Assembly (NCBI GenBank): GCA_964569555.1
Contig: CAZMTT010000001.1
Span: 1-57,761 of the forward strand
DNA: 57,761 nucleotides
Source: an uncultured Dehalococcoidales bacterium
GTDB taxonomy: Bacteria; Chloroflexota; Dehalococcoidia; Dehalococcoidales; JAUYDJ01
Direction: 5' to 3'
Of the stretch, positions 2,427 to 30,056 are shown in pieces. The first letter of the stretch is position 1. Each line of letters opens with the position of its first letter. Position numbers and translations under genes: made by a program. Below the pieces are notes generated by a model. That model was not told the origin of the DNA. It was given only the letters and a program-made list of their open reading frames with translations, and searched no databases.

Positions 2427-2465
2427 CGACCGGCTGCTGCCCTAGAGAATCCCGGGTGAAGTGAA

Positions 2466-4596: not shown

Positions 4597-4610
4597 CTGA
4601 TGAGGGAACA

Positions 4611-5465: not shown

Positions 5466-5480
5466 TTAAAAATACAGGAG

Positions 5481-8576: not shown

Positions 8577-8671
8577 TTACACTCAGTCCCCGGCTAAATC
8601 AGCCGGTTGATTATTCGCTCAGATTACGCCCCCTATTGACGGGCTGGGCAACAGCAGGCAAAATGTAGCCA

Positions 8672-9463
8672 GTGGAAGTTGCGTTAATTATTCTTTTTTT
8701 CTTACTCGGTTCGGCGGTGGGCAGTTTCCTCAACGTCTGCATGGACCGTCTGCCTGCCGACCGCTCACTGCTCCGTCCCGCCTCTCACTGTGATAGCTGC
8801 CAGCACCCGCTATCGGTAAGCGACCTCGTGCCTATATTCAGCTACCTATGGCTGCGCCGCCGCTGCCGCTACTGTCAGGCTGCCCTGCCCCGCCGCCCCT
8901 TCTGGGTGGAACTGGGCAGCGCCGGTCTTTTTGCTTTCGGCTACTGGTATTACGGCCTGAGTGTTGATTTAGCCGTTATCATCTTTTACTGCTGTCTCTT
9001 TATCGTGCTCGCCGTCATTGACCTGGAGCACGGGCTTATCCTGAATAAGATAGTCTATCCAGCGGCGGTGGTGGCGCTGGTAATCAGTGCCTTTTTCCCC
9101 CCGTCGGGCATTGTTGACCTCGCTTTAGGCTGGCCCTGGTTCGGACTGGTCAATAGCATTACCGGCGGGGCTATCGGTCTCATCTTCTTTTTGCTGCCCG
9201 CTTTAATTTACCCCGAGGGAATGGGGTGGGGGGATATTAAGATGGCTGGCCTGATCGGTCTGGTTACCGGCTCGGGGCTGGTGCTTTTCGCCTTGCTTAT
9301 CGGCATAATTCTGGGCGGGCTGGTAGCGGGGATTCTGCTCTTACTTAAAGTAAAGGGGTGGTGGGAGGCTATCCCCTTCGGTCCCTTCCTCTCGGTGGGG
9401 ACTATTGCCATACTGCTCTGGGGCAGTGATATTATCAACTGGTATCTGGGGCTGTTCTTTTAA
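8672..9463 (+). CDS. pilD: prepilin peptidase / N-methyltransferase PilD (peptidase A24)
   Basis: N-terminal CxxC...CxxC (CDSCQHPL...CRYCQA). Catalytic Asp motifs AVIDLEH and GWGDIKMAG. Polytopic membrane protein. GTG start. Confidence 0.9.
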   Translation: MEVALIILFFLLGSAVGSFLNVCMDRLPADRSLLRPASHCDSCQHPLSVSDLVPIFSYLWLRRRCRYCQAALPRRPFWVELGSAGLFAFGYWYYGLSVDLAVIIFYCCLFIVLAVIDLEHGLILNKIVYPAAVVALVISAFFPPSGIVDLALGWPWFGLVNSITGGAIGLIFFLLPALIYPEGMGWGDIKMAGLIGLVTGSGLVLFALLIGIILGGLVAGILLLLKVKGWWEAIPFGPFLSVGTIAILLWGSDIINWYLGLFF

Positions 9464-13727: not shown

Positions 13728-16700
13728 TTGGTTTCACTTGACACTTGTCCAAATTGGGGCGATAATTGCCTCGCAATGAATATCTACACCCTTTTCCCGT
13801 TAATTGCTACTGTTGCCTATATTCCACTGCTAATCACGACCATTAGCAGTCGTCCCTGGCAGAGGCGGCACCGGCTCTTTGTCCTGTTTCTCATTCCCGC
13901 CATGATGTGGAGCCTCACCGATGTCTTTCTGCGCAGTGGTCTCTTCCCGGAGCAAAGTCTCCTTTTACTTAAACTCCTTCTGGTTATGATCACCTGGATG
14001 GGGGTGCAATTCCACTGCTTTACGTCTTCTTTCTTTGCCCCCGGTGAGGGGCGGTGGCTGCCCTTCGCCTACGCTTCACTGGCGGTAGTTATCGCTCTGG
14101 TGGCGCTGGGTTATATCGGCGATGCGGTGGTTCCGGCTAACGGTGACAGGCTCTATCTTGATTACGGTATCGGCGCCATTTTCATAGCTATACCCCTGCT
14201 GACCTTTGTTGCCCGCAACCTGTATCTTTTCGGGAAGAGATTAAAGACTTTAGATAATCCGGTGCTATATAATCAGGTCTTATCGCTGATGCTCGGCATC
14301 TCCGTGCTGACTTTGTTTATTTTGGGCGCCGTCCTCCCTTGGGGAAGGGAATTTCCGGTAAGTCACTTCGGTAACCTGATCAACGCCTTGATACTCAGTT
14401 ACGCCGTCATCAGGCACGAGCTGGTGGATATCAGGGTTGTTTTGCGGCGGGGTTTGGAGTGGGTCAGCCTGGGTATTATCGGCGTTGGCAGCTACGTGAT
14501 GTTGCTGGTTTCCCTCCATATCGTCTTCCACTTTGCGCTTAGCCTGACGGCCACTTTTATCGCTACCTTGCTGGCGATACTGGTGGCTCTCTTTGTTTAT
14601 AAGCTGCGTGACCATCTCTTTATCACGGTGAGCAAGGCTTTGCTGGGGCGGAGCTATGATTACCGCCAGAAGTTAACCGGTTTTGCCAATAAGAAGATAC
14701 ACCATGTTTTCAGCCTCAGGGAGCAGGGCAGTGAGTTGCTTGAGCTGGTTACCAAAGCGGTTGGCTCTAAATGGGCATCGCTCTTATTTGTTGAGATTGG
14801 CAGCCAGCATTTCACCACTCAGTTTGTTGAGCCCCAGGGGCCCGACAATCCGCTGTCTGGCATGAGGCTGACCGGCACCAACCCGATTGTGGAGTATCTG
14901 GAACGGGAACAGAAGCTGTTAACCAGGGAAAATCTGACTATTTTAGCTGAGTTCCGCAGCCTGTGGGAGTCGGAAAAGGGGGAAATCACCGCCAAGGAAA
15001 TAGAGCTGTTTGTGCCTCTGGTGAGTCGTGACCGGTTAATCGGCATTCTGGTGCTGGGCAAAAAACAATCGGGCAAGTATTCCCTGGAAGACCTGAATCT
15101 GCTTGAGGAGATTACCAGTCGGGTTGCGGTAAGTATTGAGAAAGAATACCTGCGGGAACAGCTCCACGAGCGTGAGGAAGAGCTGTCCATAATTAACCGC
15201 TCCAGTGCCATTATGACCTCAAGTCTGGATATCCAGGGAATATACGGTAGCTTTATTGAGGAACTGAAGAAGGTGGTCGACGTTAGCTGGGCAGCCATTG
15301 TTCTGATTGAACCGAATGACCTCTATTTTGTGGCCCTGTCCTCCGAGATAGGCTCAGCCTGGCAGGTGGGGGAGCGCGTACCAATCAGGGGTTCGGCTAC
15401 GGAATGGGTAGCCAAGCACCGAAAGTCTCTCGTTGAGCCGGATTTAGCCCAGGAATGCCGTTTTAACACCGGTAGCTACCATCTTCAGCAGGGAGTGCAC
15501 TCTATTGTGTACCTGCCGTTAATCGCTAAAGGCAGAGTTATCGGCAGCCTGATTGTGGCCAGCTGCCGACCGAACGCCTATAACCCGCGCCAGGTGGCGC
15601 TCCTTGAGCAGTTGGCTTCCCAGATTGCCATGCCGGTGGAGAATTCCCAGCTCTATGCTGAAGCTGAGGAGAGGGCGCGAACCGATGAAGTTACCGGGTT
15701 ACTGAATCGCCGCGCTCTGGGTGAGCTGATTACCAGTGAAATTAACCGGCACTCCCGTTATGGCGGTATTTTTTCCCTGATCATTCTTGACCTTGATTCA
15801 TTCAAAGTGTTTAACGACAAATACGGACATTTAGCCGGCGACAGGGTTCTCCAGCAAATTGGCAGTATCATGAAAAGGGCGATAAGAAGCGCTGACCAGG
15901 CTTTTCGCTATGGTGGCGATGAATTTGCCGTTCTCTTACCGCATACCGGTGGTGAGGCTGCCCTTGAAGTAGCCGAGCGGCTTCGCCATCGGGTCGCTTC
16001 CGCAGTGGGCACGGCTGATGTGCCCATTACGATCAGCCTTGGCCTGGCTACCTGGCCGATTGATGCTGTGGTGGCTGATGGAATTATTGCCGCGGCTGAT
16101 GATGCCCTTTATCACGCCAAGCGAAGCGGGGGGAATCAGGCACAGCGGGCTTCAGTGGCGCTACCGTCTCCGGCAGAAGGCCGGGGGGGTGGTACCCGCG
16201 CTGAAAATGATGGCGCCTTAAGCACTATTTATTCTCTGGCGGCAACCGTAGATTCGCGGGAGCTCCACTCCCGTAATCACTCAAAGAGGGTAAGTGAATA
16301 TGCTGTCGCCTTGGCGGAGGCGCTTAATCTGAAGCCAAAGGTAATCAGTAGGCTGGAGACTTGTGCTTTACTGCATGATGTTGGTAAGATTGGTGTTAGC
16401 GACGAGATACTGAATAAATGGGACAAACTGACCGAGGAGGAATGGATAGCGGTCAAGACTCACCCCCAGATAGGGGCGGCTATCGTCAGTCATGCCTTGC
16501 AACTAACTCCGTGTATCGAGGCTGTTTTATATCACCATGAGAAGTATGACGGAAGTGGCTACCCGGAAGGACTGAAGGGTGAGAATATACCCTTGCCGGC
16601 TCGTATATTAGCTGTCGCTGATGCCTTTGTCGCCATGACCTCGCCTCGTCCCTACTCCCGAGCCCTGTCCAATGAGGAAGCCGCCGAGGAGATAAAGCGA

Positions 16701-16799
16701 GGTGCCGGCAAGCAGTTTGACCCTGAGCTGGTTGGGGTGTTCCTGGGCATTATTCAGGAGCGCGTCGGAGCGACTGAGGGGGAGGAGGTAAGCCGCTGA
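13728..16799 (+). CDS. membrane sensor with a 7TM-type N-domain, GAF domains, a GGDEF diguanylate cyclase and an HD-GYP phosphodiesterase
   Basis: The multi-TM N-terminus resembles the HisKA_7TM type. GGDEF at 15912-15926, with an RxxD I-site (RSAD) 5 residues upstream. HD...HDVGKIGV...HHEKYDGSGYP (GYP at 16557-16565). A more likely start is the ATG at 13776 (MNIYTLFPL). Confidence 0.9.
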   Translation: MVSLDTCPNWGDNCLAMNIYTLFPLIATVAYIPLLITTISSRPWQRRHRLFVLFLIPAMMWSLTDVFLRSGLFPEQSLLLLKLLLVMITWMGVQFHCFTSSFFAPGEGRWLPFAYASLAVVIALVALGYIGDAVVPANGDRLYLDYGIGAIFIAIPLLTFVARNLYLFGKRLKTLDNPVLYNQVLSLMLGISVLTLFILGAVLPWGREFPVSHFGNLINALILSYAVIRHELVDIRVVLRRGLEWVSLGIIGVGSYVMLLVSLHIVFHFALSLTATFIATLLAILVALFVYKLRDHLFITVSKALLGRSYDYRQKLTGFANKKIHHVFSLREQGSELLELVTKAVGSKWASLLFVEIGSQHFTTQFVEPQGPDNPLSGMRLTGTNPIVEYLEREQKLLTRENLTILAEFRSLWESEKGEITAKEIELFVPLVSRDRLIGILVLGKKQSGKYSLEDLNLLEEITSRVAVSIEKEYLREQLHEREEELSIINRSSAIMTSSLDIQGIYGSFIEELKKVVDVSWAAIVLIEPNDLYFVALSSEIGSAWQVGERVPIRGSATEWVAKHRKSLVEPDLAQECRFNTGSYHLQQGVHSIVYLPLIAKGRVIGSLIVASCRPNAYNPRQVALLEQLASQIAMPVENSQLYAEAEERARTDEVTGLLNRRALGELITSEINRHSRYGGIFSLIILDLDSFKVFNDKYGHLAGDRVLQQIGSIMKRAIRSADQAFRYGGDEFAVLLPHTGGEAALEVAERLRHRVASAVGTADVPITISLGLATWPIDAVVADGIIAAADDALYHAKRSGGNQAQRASVALPSPAEGRGGGTRAENDGALSTIYSLAATVDSRELHSRNHSKRVSEYAVALAEALNLKPKVISRLETCALLHDVGKIGVSDEILNKWDKLTEEEWIAVKTHPQIGAAIVSHALQLTPCIEAVLYHHEKYDGSGYPEGLKGENIPLPARILAVADAFVAMTSPRPYSRALSNEEAAEEIKRGAGKQFDPELVGVFLGIIQERVGATEGEEVSR

Positions 16800-18457: not shown

Positions 18458-19633
18458 ATGCCGAGCACTTATGAAAAAGAAGCCTACCAGTTTCTGGCTG
18501 CCTATCGCTTTTTGGCTTACGCTCTGGCGGCTATGTTCACGCAGGTGGTGCCGGCACTCAGTATGCCGGCAATACCCGAGTTTCATCTCTACATAGTCCT
18601 GGCCATACTCGGCATCTATACCATCCTGAAGGTCTTCTCTCCTCTCCGCTGGCGGGAGAGGAGCCCGATGACCTATCTGATTCTAATCGGTGATTTTGTG
18701 CTCTGCATCTCTCTGGTTATTGCCACCAATGGACTGAATAGCAGCTTCCTGCTCTATTCGCTTACGCCCATTATGACCGCCGCCCTTCTCTTTGAGGAGA
18801 AAATCTCCCTCTCTCTGGCCGCCATTGCCTCCCTCTCCCTCTCTATTACCCACCTGACGTTGAGTCCGTACCTGAAAATGATTGATTGGATTATGCAGGG
18901 GCATAACCTCACCCTGCTCATTGTCTACACCCTCTTCTGTTTTGTGGTGGCGGCGGTGCCTTACCGCATTAACCTGAACATACGCCGGCGCATCGAGAGA
19001 GAGGCGATTATTCAGGAGCGCCGCCGAATTGCCCGGGAGATACACGATGGCGTTGCCCAGTCGCTCGGTTACCTCAATCTGAAGACCAAGCAGGTAAGCG
19101 ATTTGGTTACTTCCCACGAGACCCTGAAAGCGCTTAACGAGCTTGGCGATGTCAGGAAGATAGTGCAGGATACCTATGAGGATATCCGGGAATCCATTGA
19201 CCAGTTGAGCACCGAGATAAAGAACCTGCCCATAATACCCGCCCTGTCCAACTATACCAGTGAATTCGGCAACAATAATGGCATCAAGGTTCAGTTTAAA
19301 ACCGCCAAGGGCTTTCCCAACCTTTCCCCGGTGGCTGAGCTGCAGTTACTGCGCATCGCCCAGGAGACGCTGACCAATGTCAGGCGACACGCCCTGGCCA
19401 GTGAGGTAGGGGTTAAGCTGGAGAATACCCGTGATACGGTGACCATGAAAATCAAAGACAACGGGCACGGCTTCGTCCTCTCCGACCTGGAAAAAGCCCC
19501 GCCCGGCTACCACGGGCTGGCCATCATCAAAGAGAGGGCGGAGGGGCTGGGCGGTAGTCTGGAGATTACCTCTACCCCTCAGAAGGGGACGGAGCTGAAA
19601 GTTACCCTGCCTCTGGAGAAAGTGAGGCTGTAA
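18458..19633 (+). CDS. sensor histidine kinase, HisKA_3 (NarX/DesK-like) type, with a polytopic N-terminus
   Basis: 5-6 TM helices. H-box REIHDGVAQSL. N box LLRIAQETLTNVRRHA. G boxes DNGHGF and GLAIIKERAEGLGG. Confidence 0.85.
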   Translation: MPSTYEKEAYQFLAAYRFLAYALAAMFTQVVPALSMPAIPEFHLYIVLAILGIYTILKVFSPLRWRERSPMTYLILIGDFVLCISLVIATNGLNSSFLLYSLTPIMTAALLFEEKISLSLAAIASLSLSITHLTLSPYLKMIDWIMQGHNLTLLIVYTLFCFVVAAVPYRINLNIRRRIEREAIIQERRRIAREIHDGVAQSLGYLNLKTKQVSDLVTSHETLKALNELGDVRKIVQDTYEDIRESIDQLSTEIKNLPIIPALSNYTSEFGNNNGIKVQFKTAKGFPNLSPVAELQLLRIAQETLTNVRRHALASEVGVKLENTRDTVTMKIKDNGHGFVLSDLEKAPPGYHGLAIIKERAEGLGGSLEITSTPQKGTELKVTLPLEKVRL

Positions 19634-19634
19634 A

Positions 19635-20303
19635 GTGGAAGCGGTTAGAGTACTTATTGTGGATGACCATAGCCTGTTTCGCCGTGGCATCGCCAGCGTC
19701 TTAAGCAATGAAAAAAGCCTGAAGGTAGTCGGGGAGGCGGCTGATGGGCTGGAGGCGATTGAAAAGACGAAGCAAATCGCCCCGGATGTGATTCTGATGG
19801 ACCTCAGTATGCCACGCTGCAGCGGGCTGGAAGCCATTCAAGCCATCCAGACCGAGATGCCCCAGATTAATATTCTGGTCCTGACTGTCTCGGAGATGGA
19901 AGCTGACCTTCTGGCCGCCGTAAAATATGGTGCCCGCGGCTACCTGCTGAAGAAGGCGGAGCCGGAAGAGCTAATTCACGCCATCACTCATATTGCCCAG
20001 GGTGGCGTGATAATTTCACCACTGATGGCGGCCAAGCTGCTTACCGAGTTCAAGGAACTCAGCGCCGGGGTGAAAAAGGGACCGAGCAAGGAAGCTAAGG
20101 CTGACCTGAGCCCGCGGGAGGATGAGGTGCTGCACCTGGTGGCGCAGGGGGCAACCAATCGGGAAATCGCTGACTCCCTGTTTATCTCGGAGAACACGGT
20201 AAAGACCCACCTGAAGAGTATTATGGAGAAGCTGCACCTGGTAAACCGAAGTCAGGCGGCGGCTTATGCGGTTACGAAGGGGCTGATTCAGAATAAAGAC
20301 TAA
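19635..20303 (+). CDS. NarL/LuxR-family response regulator (canonical receiver)
   Basis: VLIVDDHSLFRRG, ILMDLSMP, LVLTVS, GYLLKK, and the LuxR HTH EVLHLVAQGATNREIADSLFISENTVKTHLKSIMEKL. GTG start 1 nt after the kinase stop. Confidence 0.9.
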   Translation: MEAVRVLIVDDHSLFRRGIASVLSNEKSLKVVGEAADGLEAIEKTKQIAPDVILMDLSMPRCSGLEAIQAIQTEMPQINILVLTVSEMEADLLAAVKYGARGYLLKKAEPEELIHAITHIAQGGVIISPLMAAKLLTEFKELSAGVKKGPSKEAKADLSPREDEVLHLVAQGATNREIADSLFISENTVKTHLKSIMEKLHLVNRSQAAAYAVTKGLIQNKD

Positions 20304-20322
20304 GTGAGCCGGTAAGGCTCAC
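20304..20322 (+). other. stem-loop directly after the response-regulator stop codon
   Basis: GTGAGCC-ggtaa-GGCTCAC. There is no U-tract, so terminator function is uncertain. Confidence 0.3.
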
Positions 20323-20397
20323 CGTCAGCTACGGAAAGTTGCTTACTCACCCGAAAGTGCTAGTCTCCCCCCTTACTAAAATCACCCCCTTGCAGGA

Positions 20398-20426
20398 TTG
20401 TCAACGCCAGCCTTATCACCTAATAT
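20398..20426 (+). promoter_or_regulatory. candidate sigma70-type promoter of the major pilin gene
   Basis: TTGTCA (20398-20403), 17-nt spacer, TAATAT (20421-20426). About 70-nt leader, then SD AAAGGAGG before the ATG at 20500. Confidence 0.45.
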
Positions 20427-20499
20427 TGAGTGTAGCCATAGTAAAAGAGCTAGCTGTGGTCATTTCTTAAGAAAAATATAGCGGAAAGGAGGTCGCCAA

Positions 20500-20889
20500 A
20501 TGAGGATGCCTAAGCGAGGGGAGAAAGGTTTTACCCTGATTGAGCTTTTGATTGTGGTCGCCATCCTGGGTGTACTGGCGGCAATAGTCATCCCCAATGT
20601 AGGCCGGTTCATCGGCCGGGGTGAAAGTGAAGCCGCCGCTACCGAGCTGGAGAACATCCAGAACGCGACGCTGTCCATGATGACGGACCTGGGGCTGGAG
20701 ACTCTGGATAATCCGGAGACTACGGCCACCAGTGATATGGGTGCTTTCCCCGATTCCACCAATGGATATATACTCTATGGTTTCATAAGCGGAAATCAGA
20801 CGATCAACTATCTTGCCACGCAGACCACCAAGGGCACCTACACGGTGGATGCCCTGGGAACAGTGAGCCAGAACGCCACAGGCTACTAA
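20500..20889 (+). CDS. pilA: type IV (major) pilin, prepilin-type N-terminal cleavage/methylation domain
   Basis: MRMPKRGEKG|FTLIELLIVVAILGVLAAIVIPNV: a short basic leader, Gly-1, Phe+1, Glu+5. Small 129-aa protein with a strong SD, its own promoter and its own terminator. Confidence 0.85.
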   Translation: MRMPKRGEKGFTLIELLIVVAILGVLAAIVIPNVGRFIGRGESEAAATELENIQNATLSMMTDLGLETLDNPETTATSDMGAFPDSTNGYILYGFISGNQTINYLATQTTKGTYTVDALGTVSQNATGY

Positions 20890-20980
20890 TAGCTCATAGG
20901 TTAAGTGCTTTCAACAGTATCTGAGTTAAAAGATTAAAAGGTTAATTGAGGGGGGTATTGATGGGGGGTGGAGTCCGAAG

Positions 20981-21019
20981 GCAGGTGCCCGGGAGATAAC
21001 AGGGCACCTGCTCTGTTTT
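20981..21019 (+). terminator. rho-independent terminator downstream of the pilin gene
   Basis: 10-bp GC-rich stem GCAGGTGCCC (20981-20990)/GGGCACCTGC (21002-21011), followed by TCTGTTTT. Confidence 0.7.
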
Positions 21020-21075
21020 GGTTAGCTAAACTCAAAGATTATAGGGATAGTAGATAGTAGGGGGGGAGTAAATTT

Positions 21076-21261
21076 ATGGATTATCCGGCTAAAACCTGTC
21101 CTCACTGCAAGGTGCCATTAAGGCCGGGTGAAGGCGCCTTTGAACTCTCCAGGAGGGGAGTACCAAGCTCAGAGTCCTCGGCGCTTTCCGTCTCACTATA
21201 TTCCTGCCCGCAATGTGGTTATATTGAACTTTATAACCTCAAGGTCGTTGGTCGCCTCTGA
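21076..21261 (+). CDS. small zinc-ribbon protein (hypothetical)
   Basis: CPHC...CPQC pairs in 61 aa. Good SD (GGGGGGAG) 8 nt upstream of the ATG. Confidence 0.5.
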   Translation: MDYPAKTCPHCKVPLRPGEGAFELSRRGVPSSESSALSVSLYSCPQCGYIELYNLKVVGRL

Positions 21262-21278
21262 GTGATAGAGTGGCTCTA

Positions 21279-22802
21279 TCACTCAACAGTCTTGGTTTCA
21301 ACAACGATGGTACCGGCTTTGGTGTAGGGGTAGCCCTCCGGAGGTGGGATGGGGGTTAAAAATTGACCGCTTTCCTCCAGAGCGGTGAGGTATTTTCTAA
21401 AGATAAGGTAACTGTCTGCCTGACAGGTAATGGTTATTTTATCGCCCTGGTGAACGACGTCCTGCACCTGAACACCAAGCTGGTCGGCTTCGTCCTGAAT
21501 CAGCGTCAGGTCTTCAGTAAAGCCGCCGCCCAGATTAACAATGGCGTTATATTCGTCAATAGCCTTTTGCAGTGGTTCACGCTGGGCAATTTCCAGCTTC
21601 CTCCGTTCCAGCTCGTTATTAAATAGATTAAGCTTGGACTCTAACTGAGCCGTTTTCCCCATAGTATCAGAGGTCATTTGATATATCGGGAATAGCAGGA
21701 CGGTAGCCGCAATCAGCGAAACAACGATGTATACCTGCTTGGCAGAGGGTCGCCATGGGCGGTAGGTCCTGGGCAGGAGATTAATATCAAGTGATGAAAG
21801 GCCCTCATGTCCGAGACCTTCAGACAGCTCAGCTTCCCTCAGGGCAAGTCCGATGTTGACCGCATATTGAGAGACAGGGAAGTCGGCGGGGTATTCCAGA
21901 GGTGGTGCCAGCGGCTCAATGGGGTAGCCTAACCTTGCTTTTAGCTTATCTCTCGGGATAGCTTCCTCGGGCATCTGCCCGGTAATGAAGAAGGGTGTAT
22001 CCGGGTCGAGGGGTGTATCCGGGTGACGGGCATTATGAAAGTCTACCGTCAGCTCCATGGTCACCGCCAGATGCTCCGCCTTTTCTTCCGTGGTGAGTTT
22101 TTCCGGTTGCCAGGGTATAGTACGTATGATTTCAGGTATACCGTTAACCACGACAATGATATCAAAGCTGGCCGGTTCGGTATTGAGGATAAGAGCCTGT
22201 TCTCTATTGACTGCCCTGGTCAGGGCGATAGCCTTGAGTTCCAGTATGCTCGGATTGACGCCAGCCGCCTTCAAAGACTGTACTTCATTATCAATTGTGT
22301 CTCTGGGCACCCCGATGAGAAGAGCATGTGGCTCACCCTCACCGGCAAAAATAGTTTGCCAGGTGAGATATAGCTTGTCTTCCACCAGGGGCATTGTCTC
22401 CCGGGCTAAATCTTCAAAAGCTTCCTCCATGGTTGCCCCCGGTTCCGGGACTGGCATGGGCACGATGCGGCTTACCGAGTAAAGACCGCTGGCACTAGCC
22501 GTGATATCCCGTGCCCTGATACCGCTTGAATTCATCAGCTCCTTAACTACCGAGCCCAGAGGTTCGGCTTCAGGACCTGCCTCCCCTTCGGTGGCTGCCT
22601 CACTTGATTCGAGGGAAGCACTTGCCCAATTTTTGACTACTTTCCCCCGGGTCTCCAGGAGCCTGATGGCAGTGCTATCGATGTCAAGGGTTACCACTCC
22701 TCCGGTGGTTGTCCACCTCTTGGTGGACCTGCCTATCGCCTTCTGGAGTTTGTGCCAAGCCGTGCTTATATCAAGCTGTAAGAGGCCATTAGCCACGGTC
22801 AA
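21279..22802 (-). CDS. pilM: PilM fused to a PilN-like TM/coiled-coil segment (locus 2)
   Basis: Same architecture as 6037..7506: an actin-like N-part, the LNILP/INLLP motif, a TM helix (VYIVVSLIAATVLLFPIY), a coiled coil and a small C-domain. Confidence 0.75.
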   Translation of the reverse strand: MTVANGLLQLDISTAWHKLQKAIGRSTKRWTTTGGVVTLDIDSTAIRLLETRGKVVKNWASASLESSEAATEGEAGPEAEPLGSVVKELMNSSGIRARDITASASGLYSVSRIVPMPVPEPGATMEEAFEDLARETMPLVEDKLYLTWQTIFAGEGEPHALLIGVPRDTIDNEVQSLKAAGVNPSILELKAIALTRAVNREQALILNTEPASFDIIVVVNGIPEIIRTIPWQPEKLTTEEKAEHLAVTMELTVDFHNARHPDTPLDPDTPFFITGQMPEEAIPRDKLKARLGYPIEPLAPPLEYPADFPVSQYAVNIGLALREAELSEGLGHEGLSSLDINLLPRTYRPWRPSAKQVYIVVSLIAATVLLFPIYQMTSDTMGKTAQLESKLNLFNNELERRKLEIAQREPLQKAIDEYNAIVNLGGGFTEDLTLIQDEADQLGVQVQDVVHQGDKITITCQADSYLIFRKYLTALEESGQFLTPIPPPEGYPYTKAGTIVVETKTVE

Positions 22803-22829
22803 TTACTCCTTTCAGCATGGTCAGCCAAG

Positions 22830-24209
22830 CTATTCACTCTCCTGGGGTTTGGTATAGATTTCAACATTCAAAATGGCCAGGGTATCAACGTTCAGGTACT
22901 CGGTGGCGCTTGATACATCCGGACCGTCAAATTGCCGTACCGTCCCGTCCCGCTCGCAGGTATAGTAATACTCAGTGCTCAGGTAGGGGAAATAGCTTAT
23001 GGTTTCAAACTCGGTGGTATTAGTACTGACGGTCTTATCATGCTCATAAAGCACATATCCATTCCTGGGGAAGCGGTCTCCGGTGTAGCCTTTTTCTTCG
23101 GTGTTGGTGATGATATCGGGAAAGCCTTCTTTGGCTATCTTGGTGCTGGGGTTATCCCCCATAAAATTGGTGGCCACACCACTGATAAAGTTCAGCGAGT
23201 TGGGTATCAGGGCCAGGTTATTATCCTGCATCATCTCAATGACGGCTGCGGAGACGAGGTACAGCTCTCTCCGCCTCGCTTCCCGCTCGCTGATGGGATA
23301 CTCGGCGGCGGTGGTTACATCGGGACCGTCAAACTGCCGTATGGTTCCATCAGCCTCACAGGTGTAGTAGTATTCCGTTTCTAAATCGGGAAAGTAGCTA
23401 ACGGTGGTGAAATCCTCCGTAGCCGTGTCTACGATTTTGTCATGCTCATAAAGCACGTATCCATTCCGTGGTGACTCCTCACCAATGTAGCCTTTCTGGT
23501 CTACGGTGCTGATAATATCGGGGAAGCCTTCTATTTTGTCCCTGGTATCAGGGTCATCGCCCATCTTATTGCTGGCCAGTCCGCTGACAAAGTCCATCGG
23601 ATAGGGTATCTTGGACAGGTCGTTATCCGCCATCAGGTCCTGCACCGCCAGGAATATAGCGTAAAATTCCTCCTGTCTGGCTTCCTCTTCCGAGGTGCCC
23701 GCAAATTCAAACTGGCTGATATGGGCGCTCTTAAGCACCATAGTCTGCAGTATCTCACTGGAGTCGAGCTTGGTGACAAATGCCATCACATTGTCATAGT
23801 CGCCCTGCGCCCGGATATTGTTGATAGCCAAGACCTGGTATTTGCCCTCACCCATCTGCTTTGTTTGGGGTGGATTTAGCGGCGGGATGGTAAATTCGCC
23901 GCTATCCGGGTCGACATCAACCCCGCTCTCATCAGCCAGTTTAACGATGATATCAAGAACTTCCTCCGCGGCTAGCGGAGCCAGGGCCTGGTTAACCGTT
24001 TCGTACTCCGCCTGTAACTTCTCCACTGAGGGTAATGGCTTGTTAACTACACTGCTTATTCCGGTGATTCGTTTTTGAAGTTCGGCCTGCTTTGAGTTCT
24101 GCTGAAAATAGAGAATGCCCATGGCGGTATAGAGAATCAGGAAGAAACCAAATAAAAATAGGGAGCCGGTGGGCCAATATCTCTGTAACAGAGCTTTTAG
24201 TCTGTCCAT
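22830..24209 (-). CDS. PilO-like bitopic protein with a C-terminal tandem duplication of a ~134-aa pilin-head-like domain
   Basis: TM helix FLFGFFLILYTAMGILYF, a coiled coil and a globular part, as in 5481..6044. Two internal repeats follow (residues ~174-304 and ~307-438). Confidence 0.6.
   Translation of the reverse strand: MDRLKALLQRYWPTGSLFLFGFFLILYTAMGILYFQQNSKQAELQKRITGISSVVNKPLPSVEKLQAEYETVNQALAPLAAEEVLDIIVKLADESGVDVDPDSGEFTIPPLNPPQTKQMGEGKYQVLAINNIRAQGDYDNVMAFVTKLDSSEILQTMVLKSAHISQFEFAGTSEEEARQEEFYAIFLAVQDLMADNDLSKIPYPMDFVSGLASNKMGDDPDTRDKIEGFPDIISTVDQKGYIGEESPRNGYVLYEHDKIVDTATEDFTTVSYFPDLETEYYYTCEADGTIRQFDGPDVTTAAEYPISEREARRRELYLVSAAVIEMMQDNNLALIPNSLNFISGVATNFMGDNPSTKIAKEGFPDIITNTEEKGYTGDRFPRNGYVLYEHDKTVSTNTTEFETISYFPYLSTEYYYTCERDGTVRQFDGPDVSSATEYLNVDTLAILNVEIYTKPQESE
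22896..23690 (-). repeat. intragenic tandem duplication (2 x ~400 bp, diverged) encoding the repeated domain
   Basis: Copy 1 is 23298-23690 and copy 2 is 22896-23291. Shared blocks include GFPDII, PRNGYVLYEHDK, VSYFP/ISYFP, TEYYYTCE-DGT-RQFDGPDV and AEY/TEY. Confidence 0.7.
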
Positions 24210-24275
24210 TCTTTAATCTTCTTTAATCTCAACTAGCTTTTGCATCTATTACCGGAAGAGCCGGTTTCTTTTCGC

Positions 24276-24653
24276 CTATTGCCATCTGTCACGCAGCGCC
24301 TTCTGCACCCTCTCTTCTACGGTTTCCTCTATCGCCTGTTCAGTTGGCTTTTCTGATTCTTGCTCCAGCCTGGCCAGTTCCTCATCATAGAAAAAGGAAT
24401 ATAGTTGTCTCCCCCGCCGCCACCCCACCAGCCAGACCATAGCCAGGCCGAAGATGGCAATCGGCCCCACCCACTCAATGCCGAGGCCTTCAAAGAGCAG
24501 GATGATAACCAGGATTAAGATGGCGAACAGAAAGATAGCACAGTTAAGGTCCCACCGCGAGTTTCTGGACCTTACTCTGGCTCTGGCCGCCGCCAGCGCT
24601 TTCATTTCCTCAATTTTATCGGTGGCTTCCGAGGGAGCTTTGGTTTCTTCCAT
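24276..24653 (-). CDS. small 2-TM membrane protein with charged termini (hypothetical)
   Basis: 125 aa. Hydrophobic core NCAIFLFAILILVIILLF and GPIAIFGLAMVWLVGW. SD AAGGAGAAAAA before the ATG. No counterpart in locus 1. Confidence 0.5.
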   Translation of the reverse strand: MEETKAPSEATDKIEEMKALAAARARVRSRNSRWDLNCAIFLFAILILVIILLFEGLGIEWVGPIAIFGLAMVWLVGWRRGRQLYSFFYDEELARLEQESEKPTEQAIEETVEERVQKALRDRWQ

Positions 24654-24678
24654 ATTTTTCTCCTTGTCTTTTTAGGTG

Positions 24679-24705
24679 CTTGGTGAGCACTATACACTCA
24701 CCAAG
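24679..24705 (-). other. intercistronic stem-loop between the PilX-like gene and the 2-TM gene
   Basis: CTTGGTGAG-9 nt-CTCACCAAG, a 9-bp perfect stem. No U-tract on the coding (-) strand. Confidence 0.3.
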
Positions 24706-24734
24706 CGTTATTATCAATGATAGCTAGATGCCTG

Positions 24735-26138
24735 CTATCTCATTTGATACGAAGTTATCGAAACACCACCGACCACCAGCGCCAGGTTGGAGTCAAGAAT
24801 TATCCCCTCGGCATCAGCCCGCGAGTCATAGGTGGGCACGGTCACGGCACCGCTGTTCCAGCTGTAGCAGGTGTAATATTCATCCCCGGTAATACCAATG
24901 TCTAGGAATACCTGCGGTATCGAAACATCAGAAATTACCTGAACCTCGTTGTAGTAGCTGCCGGACACGTCCTTGGTCGTGGTGGCCACGAAGTCTAGGT
25001 GCAAAGTCTCACCAGCGGCGATGGATATCGCCGGCGAGAACAACCAGTAAAGCTCCAGCCGGTCTACGCCGTTGATTTCTCTCTCGGTCTCCACCGGGTC
25101 ATTAGTGGTCATATTACTGGTCGGACCGGTGTAGGTGAAGCCCGGGGGCAGGTAGTCATATATTTCCTCAATATGGTTGGTAAAACCGTCCTGGTTGGTG
25201 ATTTGGATGGTGTAATCAATATCGGTCAATACGCCGGGCGGGATAATCTCGGGGTCGGAGGTTTTCACTATCTGGATTAGCCCGTCATCATCACATACCC
25301 CGGGATTGGCCGGGTTCCCCACCGTCAGAGGGGCCTGGGGACCGCTGAGGGTATCCCATGGCTTCAAGACAATCCAGTTGCAGTGCACCCGGTCGTTGTC
25401 CGCCGCTTTAAACTGGTGTGTCAACTTGAATTTTATTTCCTTCACCTGCCTGGCGGTGAAGTTCCTCATGCCGTGAAAGTAGTTGGGACTGGTGTTGTCC
25501 GAGGAGAAGGGATTGGCTTCGGTGTCAGGGTTGTAATTGGCCGGCCACTTCAGACGCCAGCGTGTGGGCGGGTTCTCGAAGGCAGGGTCGGGGATGCTCA
25601 GCCAGGGACCGCCGTCTGTTCTCATATAACAGCTACCCTCGACAAACTCAGTGTCATCGTAAACGTCGGGCAGGATTTCATAGACAGCATCCAGACCCTG
25701 GGTGGTATTGGCGCTGAGCTGTTCCAGTTTTATGGTATAGGTAACGGTTTGTAAGGTGTTATTGGGGATGGTGTCCGGGGTAACCGTCTTGGTCGGCTGG
25801 ATGACGTCATCGGTGGCCAGGATTATCCCGCCTTTACCGGGCACCGCCCGCATGATGATGGTGAGGTTGACCGATATCGGGCAGGTATCGCAGGTGAGGT
25901 ATCCCACCGGATTCTCTGTTGTGAATTCATTGCCGAACTCGTCATACAGTAGCTTCCACAGGATGTATTCCTGCGCCGTGTCGGCGGCGTAGATTAACTG
26001 CGTCTGGCGGGTGGCAATCTGGCTGCTCTTGAGTGAGGTATCGGTCAGCCGGAGCGCCTGAATTGCCAGTGTTGAGCCGATGGCGAGCAGTATCAGGACC
26101 AGAAGGAAGACCTGTCCCACCTCTTTCTTTTTCATCAC
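24735..26138 (-). CDS. large PilX-like pilus protein with two DUF11/Ig-like domains (candidate tip adhesin)
   Basis: N-terminal helix GQVFLLVLILLAIGSTLAI without Glu+5. PilX_N-like LIYAADTAQEYILW. Two segments match the DUF11 pattern: KTVTPDTIP...VTYTIKL...ILPD, and VKTSDPEIIPPGVLTDIDYTIQITNQDG...IYDYLPPGFTY. Confidence 0.6.
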   Translation of the reverse strand: MMKKKEVGQVFLLVLILLAIGSTLAIQALRLTDTSLKSSQIATRQTQLIYAADTAQEYILWKLLYDEFGNEFTTENPVGYLTCDTCPISVNLTIIMRAVPGKGGIILATDDVIQPTKTVTPDTIPNNTLQTVTYTIKLEQLSANTTQGLDAVYEILPDVYDDTEFVEGSCYMRTDGGPWLSIPDPAFENPPTRWRLKWPANYNPDTEANPFSSDNTSPNYFHGMRNFTARQVKEIKFKLTHQFKAADNDRVHCNWIVLKPWDTLSGPQAPLTVGNPANPGVCDDDGLIQIVKTSDPEIIPPGVLTDIDYTIQITNQDGFTNHIEEIYDYLPPGFTYTGPTSNMTTNDPVETEREINGVDRLELYWLFSPAISIAAGETLHLDFVATTTKDVSGSYYNEVQVISDVSIPQVFLDIGITGDEYYTCYSWNSGAVTVPTYDSRADAEGIILDSNLALVVGGVSITSYQMR

Positions 26139-26632
26139 TCTATCACCTCCGCCCGGATAAAGCCGCTGAACTCAACGGTGGCGCTCCGCTGCGGTACGCT
26201 GGAACCGGTGGCGGTAATGGTGACATTGATTACTCTGCCGTTCTGGGTAAAGCCGAGGTCGGTTATGTGCCGGCCCACAATGCTCATCACGCCGTCGTAG
26301 GTGCGCTGCAGCACGGTACCGGAAAGGGTGTACTGGCAGTTATGGGAAGTGCTGTTCTCCGATGAAAAGCCGGTGTAGTCCGTCCAGCTCAGGGTCACCG
26401 AGCTTTGCGGGACCGGGTCGCCGTCGGTGAGGTCGGTGGTCTGGGTCATCATCAGGTCTTTCTTGATGGCTAACGCTGCCTGATTTACATCGGTCAGGGC
26501 GACCACCTGGCTGTTGTTCCGGCCGGTGCCCCAGACAATCTGGTAGAAGCTCATAGAGGCGCCTACCAGTATGACGCTGCCGATGGCTAGCGTTACCAAT
26601 AGTTCAATCAGTGTGAACCCGGCCTGTTTCAT
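26135..26632 (-). CDS. prepilin-type minor pilin/pseudopilin
   Basis: MKQAG|FTLIELLVTLAIGSVIL, a canonical cleavage/methylation motif. 4-nt overlaps on both sides. Confidence 0.8.
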   Translation of the reverse strand: MKQAGFTLIELLVTLAIGSVILVGASMSFYQIVWGTGRNNSQVVALTDVNQAALAIKKDLMMTQTTDLTDGDPVPQSSVTLSWTDYTGFSSENSTSHNCQYTLSGTVLQRTYDGVMSIVGRHITDLGFTQNGRVINVTITATGSSVPQRSATVEFSGFIRAEVIE

Positions 26633-27060
26633 TTCTTTGTCCTCGCCGTGCAGATTGCCAGGACCTCTTTTCCCGACTCCCGGTATACGGTAACGATAAT
26701 TCTCTGGAAGGTCTCGGTTCCGGTACAGCTACCAAAGCTCTCGGCGGCATCGGCATCGTTGGTGCATTCGGTGGTGGCAATCATGCTGTATTGTGTGGGG
26801 ACAGTAATATTATAAGATTCGGCATCGGGGTAGCTAGCGTTGTAGGAGCTGGACTTGATATTCTCTATATAGTCACTGGCCAGACTGGCGGCGGTTACCT
26901 TCTCATCGGTGATGCTGACGGCGCGGTAGTTGGTACTAAGGGCGGCCACCACGCTCGCCCCGATAAACCCCAGAATGGCCACGGCTACCAGGGTTTCCAT
27001 CAGGCCTATGCCCTGCTGCCCCTGGAAAAACCCAGTTATTGCCTTAACCAGAAATTTCAT
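26629..27060 (-). CDS. prepilin-type minor pilin/pseudopilin
   Basis: ...QQGIG|LMETLVAVAILGFIGASV with Glu+5. Colinear with 3671..4069 of locus 1. Confidence 0.7.
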   Translation of the reverse strand: MKFLVKAITGFFQGQQGIGLMETLVAVAILGFIGASVVAALSTNYRAVSITDEKVTAASLASDYIENIKSSSYNASYPDAESYNITVPTQYSMIATTECTNDADAAESFGSCTGTETFQRIIVTVYRESGKEVLAICTARTKK

Positions 27061-27085
27061 AACATCAGCGTACCATCACTTTTGA

Positions 27086-28336
27086 TTAACCAAAGGCGCC
27101 GGTGAGGGTATACATTGGCATTAGTACCGAGATGGCGATAAAACCGACCAGCAGTGCAATGCCGACGGTAGCCAGTGGGCCTATCAAGCCGACTATGGTA
27201 GCTGCCTTTTCGTCGGCGGTAGATTCGCAGAAATCAGCCACCACTCCCAGAGTGAAGTCAAGGGTGTTGCTTTCCTCCCCGACGGCTACCATCTGGATGA
27301 GTAGTGGCGGGAACAGGGCAATACGGGACATCGGTGCGGCTAATCCCTCACCCAGATAAAGCTTGTCCCTGAGTTCATCCAAGGCGCTACGGAAGACATA
27401 ATTATTGGTGGAGTAGGGCGCCATCTCCATTATCTCCTGCAGGTTCATCCCGGCGCTTATCAGTACCGATACCGTTCGGCTGAAACGGCCCAGCTCTGAC
27501 ATGAGAGTCGTCGTCCCGATTAAGGGCGCATTGAGCCGGATACGGTCAAGTATCCGCCTTCCGGTCGGCTGCTTGACCATCCACAGTATCGTCGCCACCA
27601 ATATTGCCCCGATGATGACGAGATAGAGCATGTTGCCGGTGACAAATCCGGTCAGTCCAATCAGGATTCGGGTGGGCAGGGGTAGCTCCACATTCATGGT
27701 GGTGAACATGTCCAGCAGGCTTGGCATGACCACGGTGATAAGAATTATAATGACTACAAAGCCGACGCCAAGGACTATCGCGGGATAGACCAGAGCCTTA
27801 CTTATCTTTTTGGCCATCATGTTCTGTCGTTCCTGATAGTCAGCCATTCGCTGCAGGACACTATGCAAGTCTCCCGATTGTTCGCCAACGGAAATGGTCC
27901 GGTAATAAATCTCGCCAAAAGCCTTGGGGTGTTTGCTCAGGGCCTGGGAAAATGAAACTCCGCCGCGTATGTCTAAAATAATGGCTTCCAGAATTTTCTT
28001 AAAGGCACGACTGGTGGCTACCTGGCCCTGAAGAATTTCCATTGCCGGTAGCAGTGAGATGCCTGACCGGAGCAGTATCGCCAGCTGGCGAGAAAAGACG
28101 ATGACATCCCGCGGCTTTACCGTAAAAAAGGTCGGCAGTGCCTCTTCCAGGCTGAACATAGAAGGGGCGACCTGTACCTGTATCGGGTTGTAGCCCTTAG
28201 CGATAATAAGCCGCTCTGCGGCCAGCTCATTGGGCGCCTTGACGCTGCCCTTTACCAGCTTTCCCTGCCGGTCATAGGCTTCATAGCGGTAGGTTAGCGG
28301 TTTTGGCTTTTTAATGCTCTCAATAGTGCTGGTCAT
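27086..28336 (-). CDS. pilC: type IV pilus platform protein PilC (locus 2)
   Basis: 416 aa with two T2SSF repeats (RSGISLLPAMEIL, SAGMNLQEIMEMA) and 3 TM segments. Confidence 0.9.
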   Translation of the reverse strand: MTSTIESIKKPKPLTYRYEAYDRQGKLVKGSVKAPNELAAERLIIAKGYNPIQVQVAPSMFSLEEALPTFFTVKPRDVIVFSRQLAILLRSGISLLPAMEILQGQVATSRAFKKILEAIILDIRGGVSFSQALSKHPKAFGEIYYRTISVGEQSGDLHSVLQRMADYQERQNMMAKKISKALVYPAIVLGVGFVVIIILITVVMPSLLDMFTTMNVELPLPTRILIGLTGFVTGNMLYLVIIGAILVATILWMVKQPTGRRILDRIRLNAPLIGTTTLMSELGRFSRTVSVLISAGMNLQEIMEMAPYSTNNYVFRSALDELRDKLYLGEGLAAPMSRIALFPPLLIQMVAVGEESNTLDFTLGVVADFCESTADEKAATIVGLIGPLATVGIALLVGFIAISVLMPMYTLTGAFG

Positions 28337-28343
28337 TTTTCCC

Positions 28344-30056
28344 CTAATAGGTTATGGAGAAGACATTGCGAATGACTTCGCCGGGGGTGGTGATACCCAT
28401 TTTTACTTTCAGCATGCCATCATGCCACAGTGAGAGCATACCTTCTTTATAGGCGACAGAGCGAATTTCATTGGCGCTGGCACCGGCCAGGACCAGCCGG
28501 TTCAGGTCCTCGCTCATGGTCAAAACCTCAAAGATGCCGGTTCGACCCTGAAAGCCGGTGTTGGCACAGAAAGTGCAACCGGCGCCGATTATGAATTCAG
28601 TGCGCTTCTCCTTAAATTCTTTCTCGTAGGCTTCCCGTTCATCGTCAGGGACCGACGTAGGTCCGGAGCAATAGGGGCAGACCTTGCGCACCATTCTCTG
28701 GGCGACCACGCCAATCAGTGCTGAGGTAATCAGGAAGGCTTCTACACCCAGGTCTATCATCCGGTAAATGGTGGCTACGGCGTCATTGGCGTGGACTGAG
28801 GAGAGCACTAGGTGACCGGTCAGGGCGGCCTGGGTGGATATCTGGGCCGTCTCCGCATCACGTATCTCACCGACCAGAATGACATCCGGGTCAAGTCTCA
28901 TGCAGGCCCTAAGCCCGGTGGCAAAGTTCACTCCGGCGGCGGGATTGACCTGCATCTGGTTAATATTGGTAAAGCGGTACTCTACCGGGTCTTCAATGGT
29001 GAGGATATTGCGTCCGATGGCATCAAGCTGGTTGACCGTGGCGTACTGGGTGGTGGTCTTACCGGAGCCGGTGGGACCGCTGATTAAAATTATGCCAAAG
29101 GGGGTCTTTACCATTCTCGCGTATCGCCCCAGAATATCGGGTAGAAAGCCAATCTCCGCTAACGGCAGAAAGGCGAAGGTTTTGTCCAGAATCCGGAGCA
29201 CCGCCATTTCCCCGTATACCGTATTGGAGGTAGCCACCCGGATATCAACCTCTCTATCCTCCATGTCAAAGGTGATCTGACCATCCTGGGGGCGGCGGCG
29301 CTCGGCAATATTGAGCCCGGCCATAATCTTCACCCGGGAGAGCAGCGGCTCGTGGACATTCAAGGGGAGGGACATAACTTCGCTCAAAATACCATCAATG
29401 CGGTAGCGGATGCGCAGCTTGTCATCCTGAGGCTCAACGTGGATATCTGAGGCCCGGTCTCTTACCGCCTGCTTGATAAGCAGGTCAATGGCACGTACCA
29501 CCGGGGCTTGAGCAATGGCTTCGGCGGAGACCCGTGTCTCTCTCATCCCGCCGCCGCCACTTCGGTAGCGAAGCGGAATTTGGCTGAGCTGTTCTTCAAT
29601 CTCGCCACCAATCCGGTAGTTGAGGTCAATCATCTCCTGGATATCCTGGAAGGTGCTGATTACCGGCTCAATCCGTTTCATGGTCAGGGAAGTTAGCTCC
29701 TCAATGGTGTGGATATCTCTCGGGTCTTCCATGGCAACCACGACGGCACCATCCAGCATACGTACCGGGATAACGCCGTATTTTCGGGCGATTGCTTCTG
29801 GAATTAGCTTCAGGGCTTGTGTTTGGACTCCCTCTTTCTTCAGATTGACGAAGGGAATCCCCAGCTGAAGGCTGATGAAGAAAGCAAGTTGCTGGGTGGT
29901 GACTAAACGCTGCTGGAGCAGAATTCGCTCTACCCTTTCGCCACTCTTACGCTGCAGCTCCTGGACGCGGGTGAGCTGCTCATCGCTAACCAGCCCGCCT
30001 TCAACCAGTAGCTGCCCCAGATCTTTCTTGGCTACTTTTTTCTCTGATGACTTCAC
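28344..30056 (-). CDS. pilB: type IV pilus assembly ATPase PilB with an MshEN-like N-terminal extension (locus 2)
   Basis: 570 aa. Walker A GPTGSGKTT, Walker B DPDVILVGEIRD, His box, CPYC...CTFC. N-terminal LGQLLVEGGLVSDEQLTRVQELQ plus RVERILLQQRLVTTQQLAFFISLQ. Confidence 0.92.
   Translation of the reverse strand: MKSSEKKVAKKDLGQLLVEGGLVSDEQLTRVQELQRKSGERVERILLQQRLVTTQQLAFFISLQLGIPFVNLKKEGVQTQALKLIPEAIARKYGVIPVRMLDGAVVVAMEDPRDIHTIEELTSLTMKRIEPVISTFQDIQEMIDLNYRIGGEIEEQLSQIPLRYRSGGGGMRETRVSAEAIAQAPVVRAIDLLIKQAVRDRASDIHVEPQDDKLRIRYRIDGILSEVMSLPLNVHEPLLSRVKIMAGLNIAERRRPQDGQITFDMEDREVDIRVATSNTVYGEMAVLRILDKTFAFLPLAEIGFLPDILGRYARMVKTPFGIILISGPTGSGKTTTQYATVNQLDAIGRNILTIEDPVEYRFTNINQMQVNPAAGVNFATGLRACMRLDPDVILVGEIRDAETAQISTQAALTGHLVLSSVHANDAVATIYRMIDLGVEAFLITSALIGVVAQRMVRKVCPYCSGPTSVPDDEREAYEKEFKEKRTEFIIGAGCTFCANTGFQGRTGIFEVLTMSEDLNRLVLAGASANEIRSVAYKEGMLSLWHDGMLKVKMGITTPGEVIRNVFSITY

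Follow-up and report, generated by a model that had tools for sequence, protein, structure and literature searches.

The stretch of DNA analysed here (57,761 nucleotides from an uncultured Dehalococcoidales bacterium, hereafter the window) carries, in a type IV pilus operon, a gene for a 459-amino-acid (aa) protein in which two copies of the head domain of the lineage's own type IV pilin are set in tandem into a PilO-like scaffold. We regard this architecture and the homology of the heads, taken jointly, as highly probable, and the scaffold is likely to be PilO, or at least to work as PilO. The explanation that we favour for the whole protein, a PilO with inserted heads that act as a fixed collar or anchor at the pilus base, is given slightly less than an even chance of being correct. 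Enlarged or fused PilO proteins and machine parts derived from filament subunits are both already known; a PilO with inserted pilin heads is undescribed. We found no curated family, database name or publication describing one, in keeping with an earlier sequence-only reading of the window, which had not recognized the architecture from described systems. What that reading observed is confirmed, and its interpretation is supported with the refinements given below.

The gene is an uninterrupted open reading frame (ORF) on the minus strand, a detail that the earlier reading had not given; read on the plus strand, the same interval is riddled with stop codons. The coordinates of its parts and of its neighbours are collected in Table 1. 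The full-length AlphaFold2 (AF2) model of the protein (predicted local distance difference test [pLDDT] 83.2, predicted template modelling score [pTM] 0.73) begins with a long helix at aa 2-55 that comprises the transmembrane (TM) segment and the stalk. This is followed by helices at 62-75 and 81-94, strands at 115-119 and 122-136, a helix at 138-149 and a strand at 157-168, and then by head 1, head 2 and a last strand at 441-453. The one N-terminal TM helix that had been proposed earlier was thus located. In the family alignment, G21 and Q36 of the TM region are invariant and I25, G31, Y34 and Q37 nearly so; Y452 and K454, in the region of the final strand, are also nearly invariant. A Pfam scan of the protein gave no match to N_methyl, and the N-terminus lacks a G|F-x-x-x-E motif; processing by a prepilin peptidase was rejected on the absence of this motif. 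NCBIfam likewise gave no match, so neither collection has a family for the protein, and the repeat is not an already annotated domain unrelated to pilins, an outcome that would have undone the earlier reading.

The two heads are a tandem duplication with a period of 134 aa, as had been read from the sequence: 80 of 132 positions are identical (61%), with no gaps (E=3e-60). The DNA of the two copies is 66% identical, with saturation at synonymous sites (synonymous divergence [dS] 1.64), so the duplication is old and no artefact of assembly. Among two-head proteins of the family, copy 1 groups with copy 1 in 43 of 48 and copy 2 with copy 2 in 46 of 48, clustering that indicates a single duplication at the base of a sub-clade. 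Mean identity between copy 1 and copy 2 is 0.69 within one protein versus 0.60 between proteins, an excess that may reflect some gene conversion.

The homology of the repeat unit to the type IV pilin head of this lineage is established by sequence comparison. When repeat 2 alone was used as a phmmer query against 1.84 billion protein representatives, 88 matches were obtained, 14 of them with a canonical prepilin N-terminus (RGEKGFTLIELL...). The top prepilin match, P0258, has an E-value of 1e-20 and 46% identity across the whole domain. A hidden Markov model (HMM) of the domain, built from 169 PilO-borne heads, scores the prepilins P0258 and P0261 at 121-122 bits, so the profile check that had been proposed for the repeat came out in favour of a link to pilins. 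Heads and pilins are colinear in a joint alignment, with FPD, GY-LY-HD and Y-T...GTV-Q motifs in common. The repeats begin at the equivalent of the pilin GRGE-EA segment (alpha1-C), and the prepilin leader and the hydrophobic alpha1-N segment are absent, as noticed earlier. As an internal control, the minor pilins of the surveyed loci give no match to the head HMM. The domain-only AlphaFold model of copy 2 (pLDDT 90.5, pTM 0.85) shows the general plan of a pilin head: a 24-residue helix leads through a long loop into an antiparallel sheet of four strands.

By eye, each copy had been judged colinear with the head of the pilin encoded nearby in the window. This holds strongly for longer members of that pilin's family, but only modestly for the window pilin itself. 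The family comprises 3881 proteins in two size classes, 128-134 aa and 155-166 aa. In Smith-Waterman comparisons with the head of the window pilin, repeat 2 scores 72 (z=7.9, 0/2000 shuffles) and repeat 1 scores 52 (z=5.2, 1/2000 shuffles); in a BLAST alignment of repeat and pilin, 122 columns long with 40 gaps, identity is 28%. A two-copy HMM gives the window pilin only 11.8 bits, a similarity above chance yet modest. With the same HMM, all 55 long members of the pilin family in the sample score 30-52 bits, and their alignments run end to end, from the GRGE-EA segment to the last strand. Judging by these scores, the window pilin is a shortened, weaker-matching variant of the family that donated the head.

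The sequence-only reading had treated the heads as a part appended beyond the PilO domain. They are instead an insertion in the last beta-hairpin (beta3-beta4) of a predicted core of two alpha-beta-beta motifs and not a C-terminal extension, because insert-free homologues cover aa 1-172 and then the final strand. These homologues are a 182-aa protein of another surveyed locus (L047) and the 187-aa PilO-like paralogue from the other type IV pilus locus of the window. In the final strand, their ILTIGIYTR and LTLVIYSYQ align with ILNVEIYTKPQ of the long protein. The L047 homologue matches the N-terminal part of the long protein at 45.9 bits; pairwise BLAST with the paralogue matches the TM region alone (E=2e-4). 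The long protein exceeds the paralogue by 272 aa, in agreement with the earlier estimate of about 270. At L047 (7824..9874, minus strand), the insert-free gene is accompanied by separate pilM (307 aa) and pilN-like (198 aa) genes, the latter with a weak T2SSM match; this layout may be ancestral.

Published PilO proteins have a short cytoplasmic N-terminus, one TM segment, a coiled coil and two alpha-beta-beta motifs (PMC5805733). The 459-aa protein has the same bitopic topology, with basic residues in aa 1-14, a hydrophobic stretch at aa 15-35 and an unbroken modelled helix, and the alpha-beta-beta x2 order fits the AF2 model provided that strand 441-453 is counted as beta4. In a Foldseek search with the full model, the top PDB match was Pseudomonas aeruginosa PilO (2rjz_B; E=0.17, probability 0.60), and 5uvr was matched with a TMt of 0.50. 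The top Pfam match of the L047 homologue is PF04350 PilO (E=0.014, 15.9 bits, against a cut-off of 22 bits). In the window, as in 37 loci, the head-bearing gene is followed directly by a PilM_2+PilN fusion, and the surveyed operons contain no other PilO candidate, although PilN is present. Support for the PilO label is therefore convergent but weak: the PilO-like start proposed earlier draws support from topology, gene position and the two matches, but the Pfam threshold is not reached. A homology search from the L047 protein, seeking a bridge to annotated PilO, retrieved that protein alone. Weak matches to DUF5680 that recur in the Pfam scans (best E=0.02) were judged to be noise.

The family of the long protein has at least 437 members, all of them unnamed or "hypothetical" and without Pfam matches. 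Those with an organism label all come from Dehalococcoidia/Dehalococcoidales or from Chloroflexota metagenomes. Among GTDB species representatives, 44 loci were found, all in metagenome-assembled genomes (MAGs) of the same lineage, with no cultured relative among these matches. When heads were counted in the best 120 family matches plus the query, 72 proteins had one head and 48 had two; at the GTDB loci, two heads occur at only four. One head is thus the widespread state, and two heads mark a sub-clade that includes this window. A survey of whether long PilO homologues co-occur with the pilin family had also been suggested. Counted over the 25 loci with at least 1.5 kb of sequence beyond pilMN, 24 have one or two prepilins with the same head beyond pilMN on the opposite strand. 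The remaining locus, L042, is the sole well-flanked one without a prepilin after pilMN; a response regulator and a kinase follow directly.

Ratios of nonsynonymous to synonymous substitution (dN/dS) against close orthologues are 0.25-0.36 for the heads, apart from a single 0.62, against 0.39-0.74 for the scaffold; by copy, they are 0.26-0.33 for copy 1 and 0.25-0.62 for copy 2. Both heads are, on these ratios, kept by purifying selection. The heads make up a clade of their own, with mean similarity scores of 359 between inserts, 284 between pilins and 156 between inserts and pilins. An insert is no more similar to its cognate pilin than to the pilins of other loci (161 versus 156, permutation p=0.077); concerted evolution and a mimic that tracks the local pilin were rejected on this basis. 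A separate clade, constraint and the lack of cognate tracking together indicate a single ancient capture of a head, which would then have evolved independently under constraint. Two pilin genes beside a one-head PilO at L035 (5738..6740, minus strand) score 116-120 bits with the PilO-head HMM, about double the usual 45-70 bits; this is the only locus at which the cognate pilin ranked first, and it may reflect a secondary exchange of heads between PilO and pilin. In three PilO-like proteins of 452-603 aa (P0272, P0283 and P0307), the head is itself split into an N-terminal and a C-terminal half by a further insertion of approximately 100-240 aa, making these insertions nested.

The head domain also occurs in other architectures, with scores of 42-95 bits. 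P0274 has it after leucine-rich repeats (LRRs) and P0300 after a DUF6612 lipoprotein-like domain; P0293, a Ser/Thr kinase, combines it with a PD40 propeller; in P0268 it is accompanied by a signal peptide; and the 1238-aa protein P0252 has at least three copies. PilO is by far its commonest non-pilin host. The few named proteins with the head come from Chloroflexota. The pilin head without alpha1-N is an unannotated domain family of its own, and its distribution suggests a portable binding function. One further candidate, P0255 (2474 aa, with nine stretches in the first search), was dropped when the family HMM gave no confirmation.

In the explanation that we favour, Dehalococcoidales have a type IV pilus machine without a secretin, in which the protein would be the PilO-type partner of the PilM-PilN fusion. 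The head of the lineage's own pilin (alpha1-C, alpha-beta loop and four-stranded sheet) would interrupt the beta3-beta4 hairpin of the protein's second motif. Neither pilP nor pilQ turned up at the surveyed loci. The basic N-terminus places that end inside the cell, so the heads would face outward, on the outer side of the cytoplasmic membrane. The base of the pilus is encircled by a ring of PilN and PilO proteins (PMC6916266), and the heads would lie at the membrane-distal end of this ring; lacking alpha1-N, they could not enter the core of the filament. The simplest reading is a fixed ring of pilin-like heads that may serve the pilus as a collar, guide or anchor as it emerges. The ring would connect with the filament and the minor-pilin complex at its tip, or else with an outer envelope layer. 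It would replace the missing PilP/PilQ connection, much as ArlF and ArlG stay at the base of the archaellum. This collar or anchor role is put forward tentatively, and taken by itself we think it rather doubtful.

A number of observations count against this explanation. Concerning the scaffold, PF04350 was matched by neither the query nor any of 75 aligned members (0/75), and membership of that family is not demonstrated. The whole-family profile found nothing relevant among PDB sequences, and hhalign gave the insert-excised scaffold a probability of 8.5% against the PilN part of PilMN fusions, which is too weak. Concerning the heads, the comparison with known pilin folds that had been proposed went the other way: a Foldseek search of the head model against the PDB returned nothing below E=2 and no solved pilin, so the link to pilins rests on sequence and not on likeness to a solved fold. 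The absence of co-variation with the cognate pilin is unexpected for a tight interface between head and pilin, unless the interface itself is conserved. The fusions unconnected with pili mean that the head may be a general binding module and not specific to pili. Contact of the heads with the pilus or the envelope is something that we infer, and the S-layer-only envelope assumed for this MAG is taken over from cultured Dehalococcoides.

These points lend themselves to other readings. The heads could be real and the alignment-complex context wrong, the scaffold being some other bitopic accessory protein encoded beside pilMN: no member passes the Pfam PilO threshold, no PDB sequence is matched, and both the Foldseek E-value of 0.17 and the hhalign comparison with PilN are poor. 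This seems decidedly unlikely, since PilO is the top match by fold and, for the insert-free homologue, by Pfam, the topology and the modelled order of the alpha-beta-beta motifs fit PilO, and the operons offer no rival candidate. The head might also be a lineage-specific module that binds the envelope or a ligand (an S-layer protein or a glycan, for example) and that, when placed in PilO, tethers the machine with no pilin-like contact with the filament. The occurrence of the domain in P0274, P0293, P0300, P0268 and P0252, the precedent of a PilO-LysM fusion in Litorilinea, and heads that do not co-vary with the local pilin all fit such a module. Its predominance in PilO among non-pilin hosts and its tight linkage to head-bearing pilins suggest a pilus-related role instead, and we consider the module possible, if on the unlikely side; it overlaps with the anchor half of our explanation and does not exclude it.

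A more direct use of the heads would be as a docking platform, pairing transiently with the heads of membrane pilins or with a minor-pilin priming complex before PilC and PilB extrude the pilus. [quoted passage not shown] It is nevertheless unlikely, as cognate-specific similarity and co-variation are absent and the heads would sit at the membrane-distal end of the core, whereas pilin heads lie at the membrane plane. Resemblance to the pilin head could also be expected of a decoy or mimic that tracks the pilin surface (against pilus-specific phages or antibodies), or of a stopper that caps retracted pili; decoy and stopper were among the roles put forward in the sequence-only reading. Heads that are more conserved than those of the pilins, form their own clade, show no cognate tracking, are tethered at the membrane and evolve under purifying selection, unlike an arms-race decoy, leave that idea very improbable. 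A chance or compositional resemblance, with the repeat unrelated to pilins, could draw on the low score of the window pilin and on the lack of a matching solved pilin fold; it is refuted, and keeps practically no probability, given prepilin matches at E=1e-20 among 1.84e9 proteins and at approximately 121 bits, none of 2000 shuffles reaching the observed score, and colinearity over the full length.

On the minus strand, the operon runs in the order PilB, PilC, two minor prepilins, a DUF11 protein, a protein with two TM segments, the 459-aa gene and the PilM-PilN fusion. On the opposite strand beyond pilMN are a 61-aa zinc-ribbon protein, the 129-aa prepilin, a PilS-like kinase and a response regulator. 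This synteny is constant across the surveyed loci. The gene had been said to occupy the same slot as its shorter counterpart in the other pilus locus; this is correct as to its place upstream of the PilMN fusion, but an extra gene, for the 2-TM protein, follows the DUF11 (formerly "PilX-like") gene here. The 2-TM protein has no Pfam or NCBIfam assignment and is a conserved, unnamed component of the pilus system. At locus L001, the homologues of the kinase and regulator carry 6TM_PilS, HisKA_3 and HATPase_c, and Response_reg and GerE, respectively.

Table 1. Features of the 459-aa gene and of the type IV pilus genes in the window
Feature	Position	Strand	Basis
PilO-like scaffold with two inserted pilin-head domains, whole coding sequence, 459 aa	22830..24209	-	Uninterrupted ORF
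Short basic N-terminus, aa 1-14 (R3, K5, R10)	24168..24209	-	Sequence
Single TM segment, aa 15-35	24105..24167	-	Hydrophobic stretch read from sequence, GSLFLFGFFLILYTAMGILYF
Helical/coiled-coil region after the TM segment, plus linker, aa 36-80	23970..24104	-	Modelled helices 2-55 and 62-75; pLDDT 51-72
First part of PilO-like core, aa 81-172 (alpha, beta-beta, alpha, beta3)	23694..23969	-	Model and insert-free homologues
Pilin-head domain copy 1, aa 173-304	23298..23693	-	Identity to copy 2; HMM matches
Pilin-head domain copy 2, aa 307-438	22896..23291	-	phmmer prepilin matches; domain-only AF2 model
Return segment and final strand (beta4), aa 439-459 plus stop	22830..22895	-	Model (strand 441-453); insert-free homologues
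PilM-PilN fusion, 507 aa, directly downstream, presumed partner	21279..22802	-	PilM_2 E=5.7e-8, PilN E=0.034
Prepilin, 129 aa, short-head variant of donor family, probable major pilin	20500..20889	+	N_methyl 37.8 bits; repeat similarity
PilS-like histidine kinase (391 aa) and response regulator (222 aa), beside pilin	18458..20303	+	ORFs, conserved position
Small 2-TM protein, 125 aa, immediately upstream of long PilO	24276..24653	-	Nearly every surveyed locus
Rest of operon: DUF11 protein (467 aa), minor prepilins (165 and 143 aa), PilC, PilB	24735..30056	-	ORFs, Pfam, synteny
PilC, 416 aa	27086..28336	-	ORF, Pfam
PilB, 570 aa	28344..30056	-	ORF, Pfam
Insert-free PilO-like paralogue, 187 aa, other type IV pilus locus	5481..6044	+	Upstream of PilMN fusion

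Some further features of the neighbourhood were observed. The 61-aa protein (21076..21261, plus strand), which lies between pilMN and the pilin here and in the same place in many loci, has a double CxxC zinc ribbon, to which Pfam gives weak matches. The DUF11/CLIPPER protein (24735..26138, minus strand) follows the minor pilins and is a possible tip adhesin. Its N-terminus weakly matches that of the cellulose-binding tapirin (NF051896, E=3e-4), and its size ranges from approximately 390 to 1020 aa across loci. The contig has two type IV pilus loci, at 873..9463 (plus strand) and 18458..30056, which may share parts. Locus 1 encodes PilB, PilC, two minor prepilins, a 284-aa protein, the 187-aa PilO-like protein, a PilMN fusion, PilT and a prepilin peptidase, but an obvious major pilin is missing; locus 2 encodes the long PilO together with the pilin, but neither PilT nor a peptidase. 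Between the loci (13728..16799, plus strand) is a gene for a 1023-aa multi-TM protein with RYGGDEF and HHEKYDGSGYP motifs, which resembles a cyclic di-GMP protein of the diguanylate cyclase/HD-GYP type and could regulate pili.

How type IV pili are held or guided through the envelope where there is no outer-membrane secretin is an open question, and the protein described here leads to concrete predictions: pilin-like heads should ring the base of the pilus, and they should bind the pilus or an outer layer. It also defines an unannotated PilO family, to which hundreds of Dehalococcoidia proteins now labelled "hypothetical" would belong. Dehalococcoidia are important in subsurface and organohalide-respiring communities.

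With PilO of type IVa machines (PF04350; PDB 2RJZ/5UVR; related to GspM/EpsM), the protein shares the short cytoplasmic N-terminus, the single TM segment and the position of its gene beside pilM/pilN, and probably also the stalk and two alpha-beta-beta motifs; PilO is also its top fold match. It differs in that its sequence lies under every curated threshold, in the one or two 132-aa pilin heads in the beta3-beta4 hairpin, and in the lack of PilP and PilQ at the head-bearing loci. Among monoderm systems, the PilO of Streptococcus sanguinis (56.6 kDa) is enlarged, far bigger than PilN and PilO-like only in part, and a role in wall crossing or in anchoring has been speculated for the extra part (PMC6916266); a PilM-PilN fusion is present in Clostridioides difficile (PMC6916266). 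The extra mass of monoderm PilO is unexplained (PMC6916266). In the present protein, as compared by description, it originates from the pilin head and has a precise point of insertion within the core, unlike the C-terminal extension of the monoderm proteins. [quoted passage not shown] That protein and the present one are both Chloroflexota PilO proteins with an acquired accessory domain that faces the envelope; in L. aerophila this domain is LysM, which binds peptidoglycan, in an archaellum cluster, while the present domain is a pilin head and the operon a true pilus operon.

Filament-derived parts of the machine are known from archaea and from Tad systems. ArlF and ArlG (FlaF/FlaG) are derivatives of filament subunits without a class III signal peptide, located outside the membrane at the filament base and anchored to the S-layer (PMC4425475, PMC13319060); in FlaF, binding to the S-layer is through an archaellin domain that is incomplete (PMC4425475). 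As in the present case, a domain derived from a filament subunit is carried, without a signal peptide, by a membrane-anchored protein outside the filament. The likeness is an analogy only: there is no relation in sequence or fold (an Ig-like beta-sandwich there, an alpha+beta head here), ArlF and ArlG are separate genes with their own N-terminal helix and not insertions in PilO, and archaellin families are absent from the Pfam scans of the query and 75 members. CpaL of the Tad system, a pilin-like domain plus vWA (PMC13170226), likewise joins a pilin module to another domain; such proteins retain the N-terminus of a pilin and become part of the filament tip, whereas the present module lacks the polymerisation helix and is carried by a protein of the assembly platform. 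A bolder proposal, which we consider somewhat improbable, is that Dehalococcoidia independently evolved a bacterial counterpart of ArlF/ArlG, a static ring of approximately 12-24 heads that steers and anchors the pilus, instead of PilP/PilQ, across a wall-less, S-layer-type envelope, with the same head used throughout the lineage as a pilus/envelope docking module that brings kinases, LRR proteins and lipoproteins to the ring. If the collar or anchor explanation is true, the protein would be a bacterial parallel to ArlF/ArlG, and the reuse of a filament subunit as a fixed part of the machine would be a recurrent solution.

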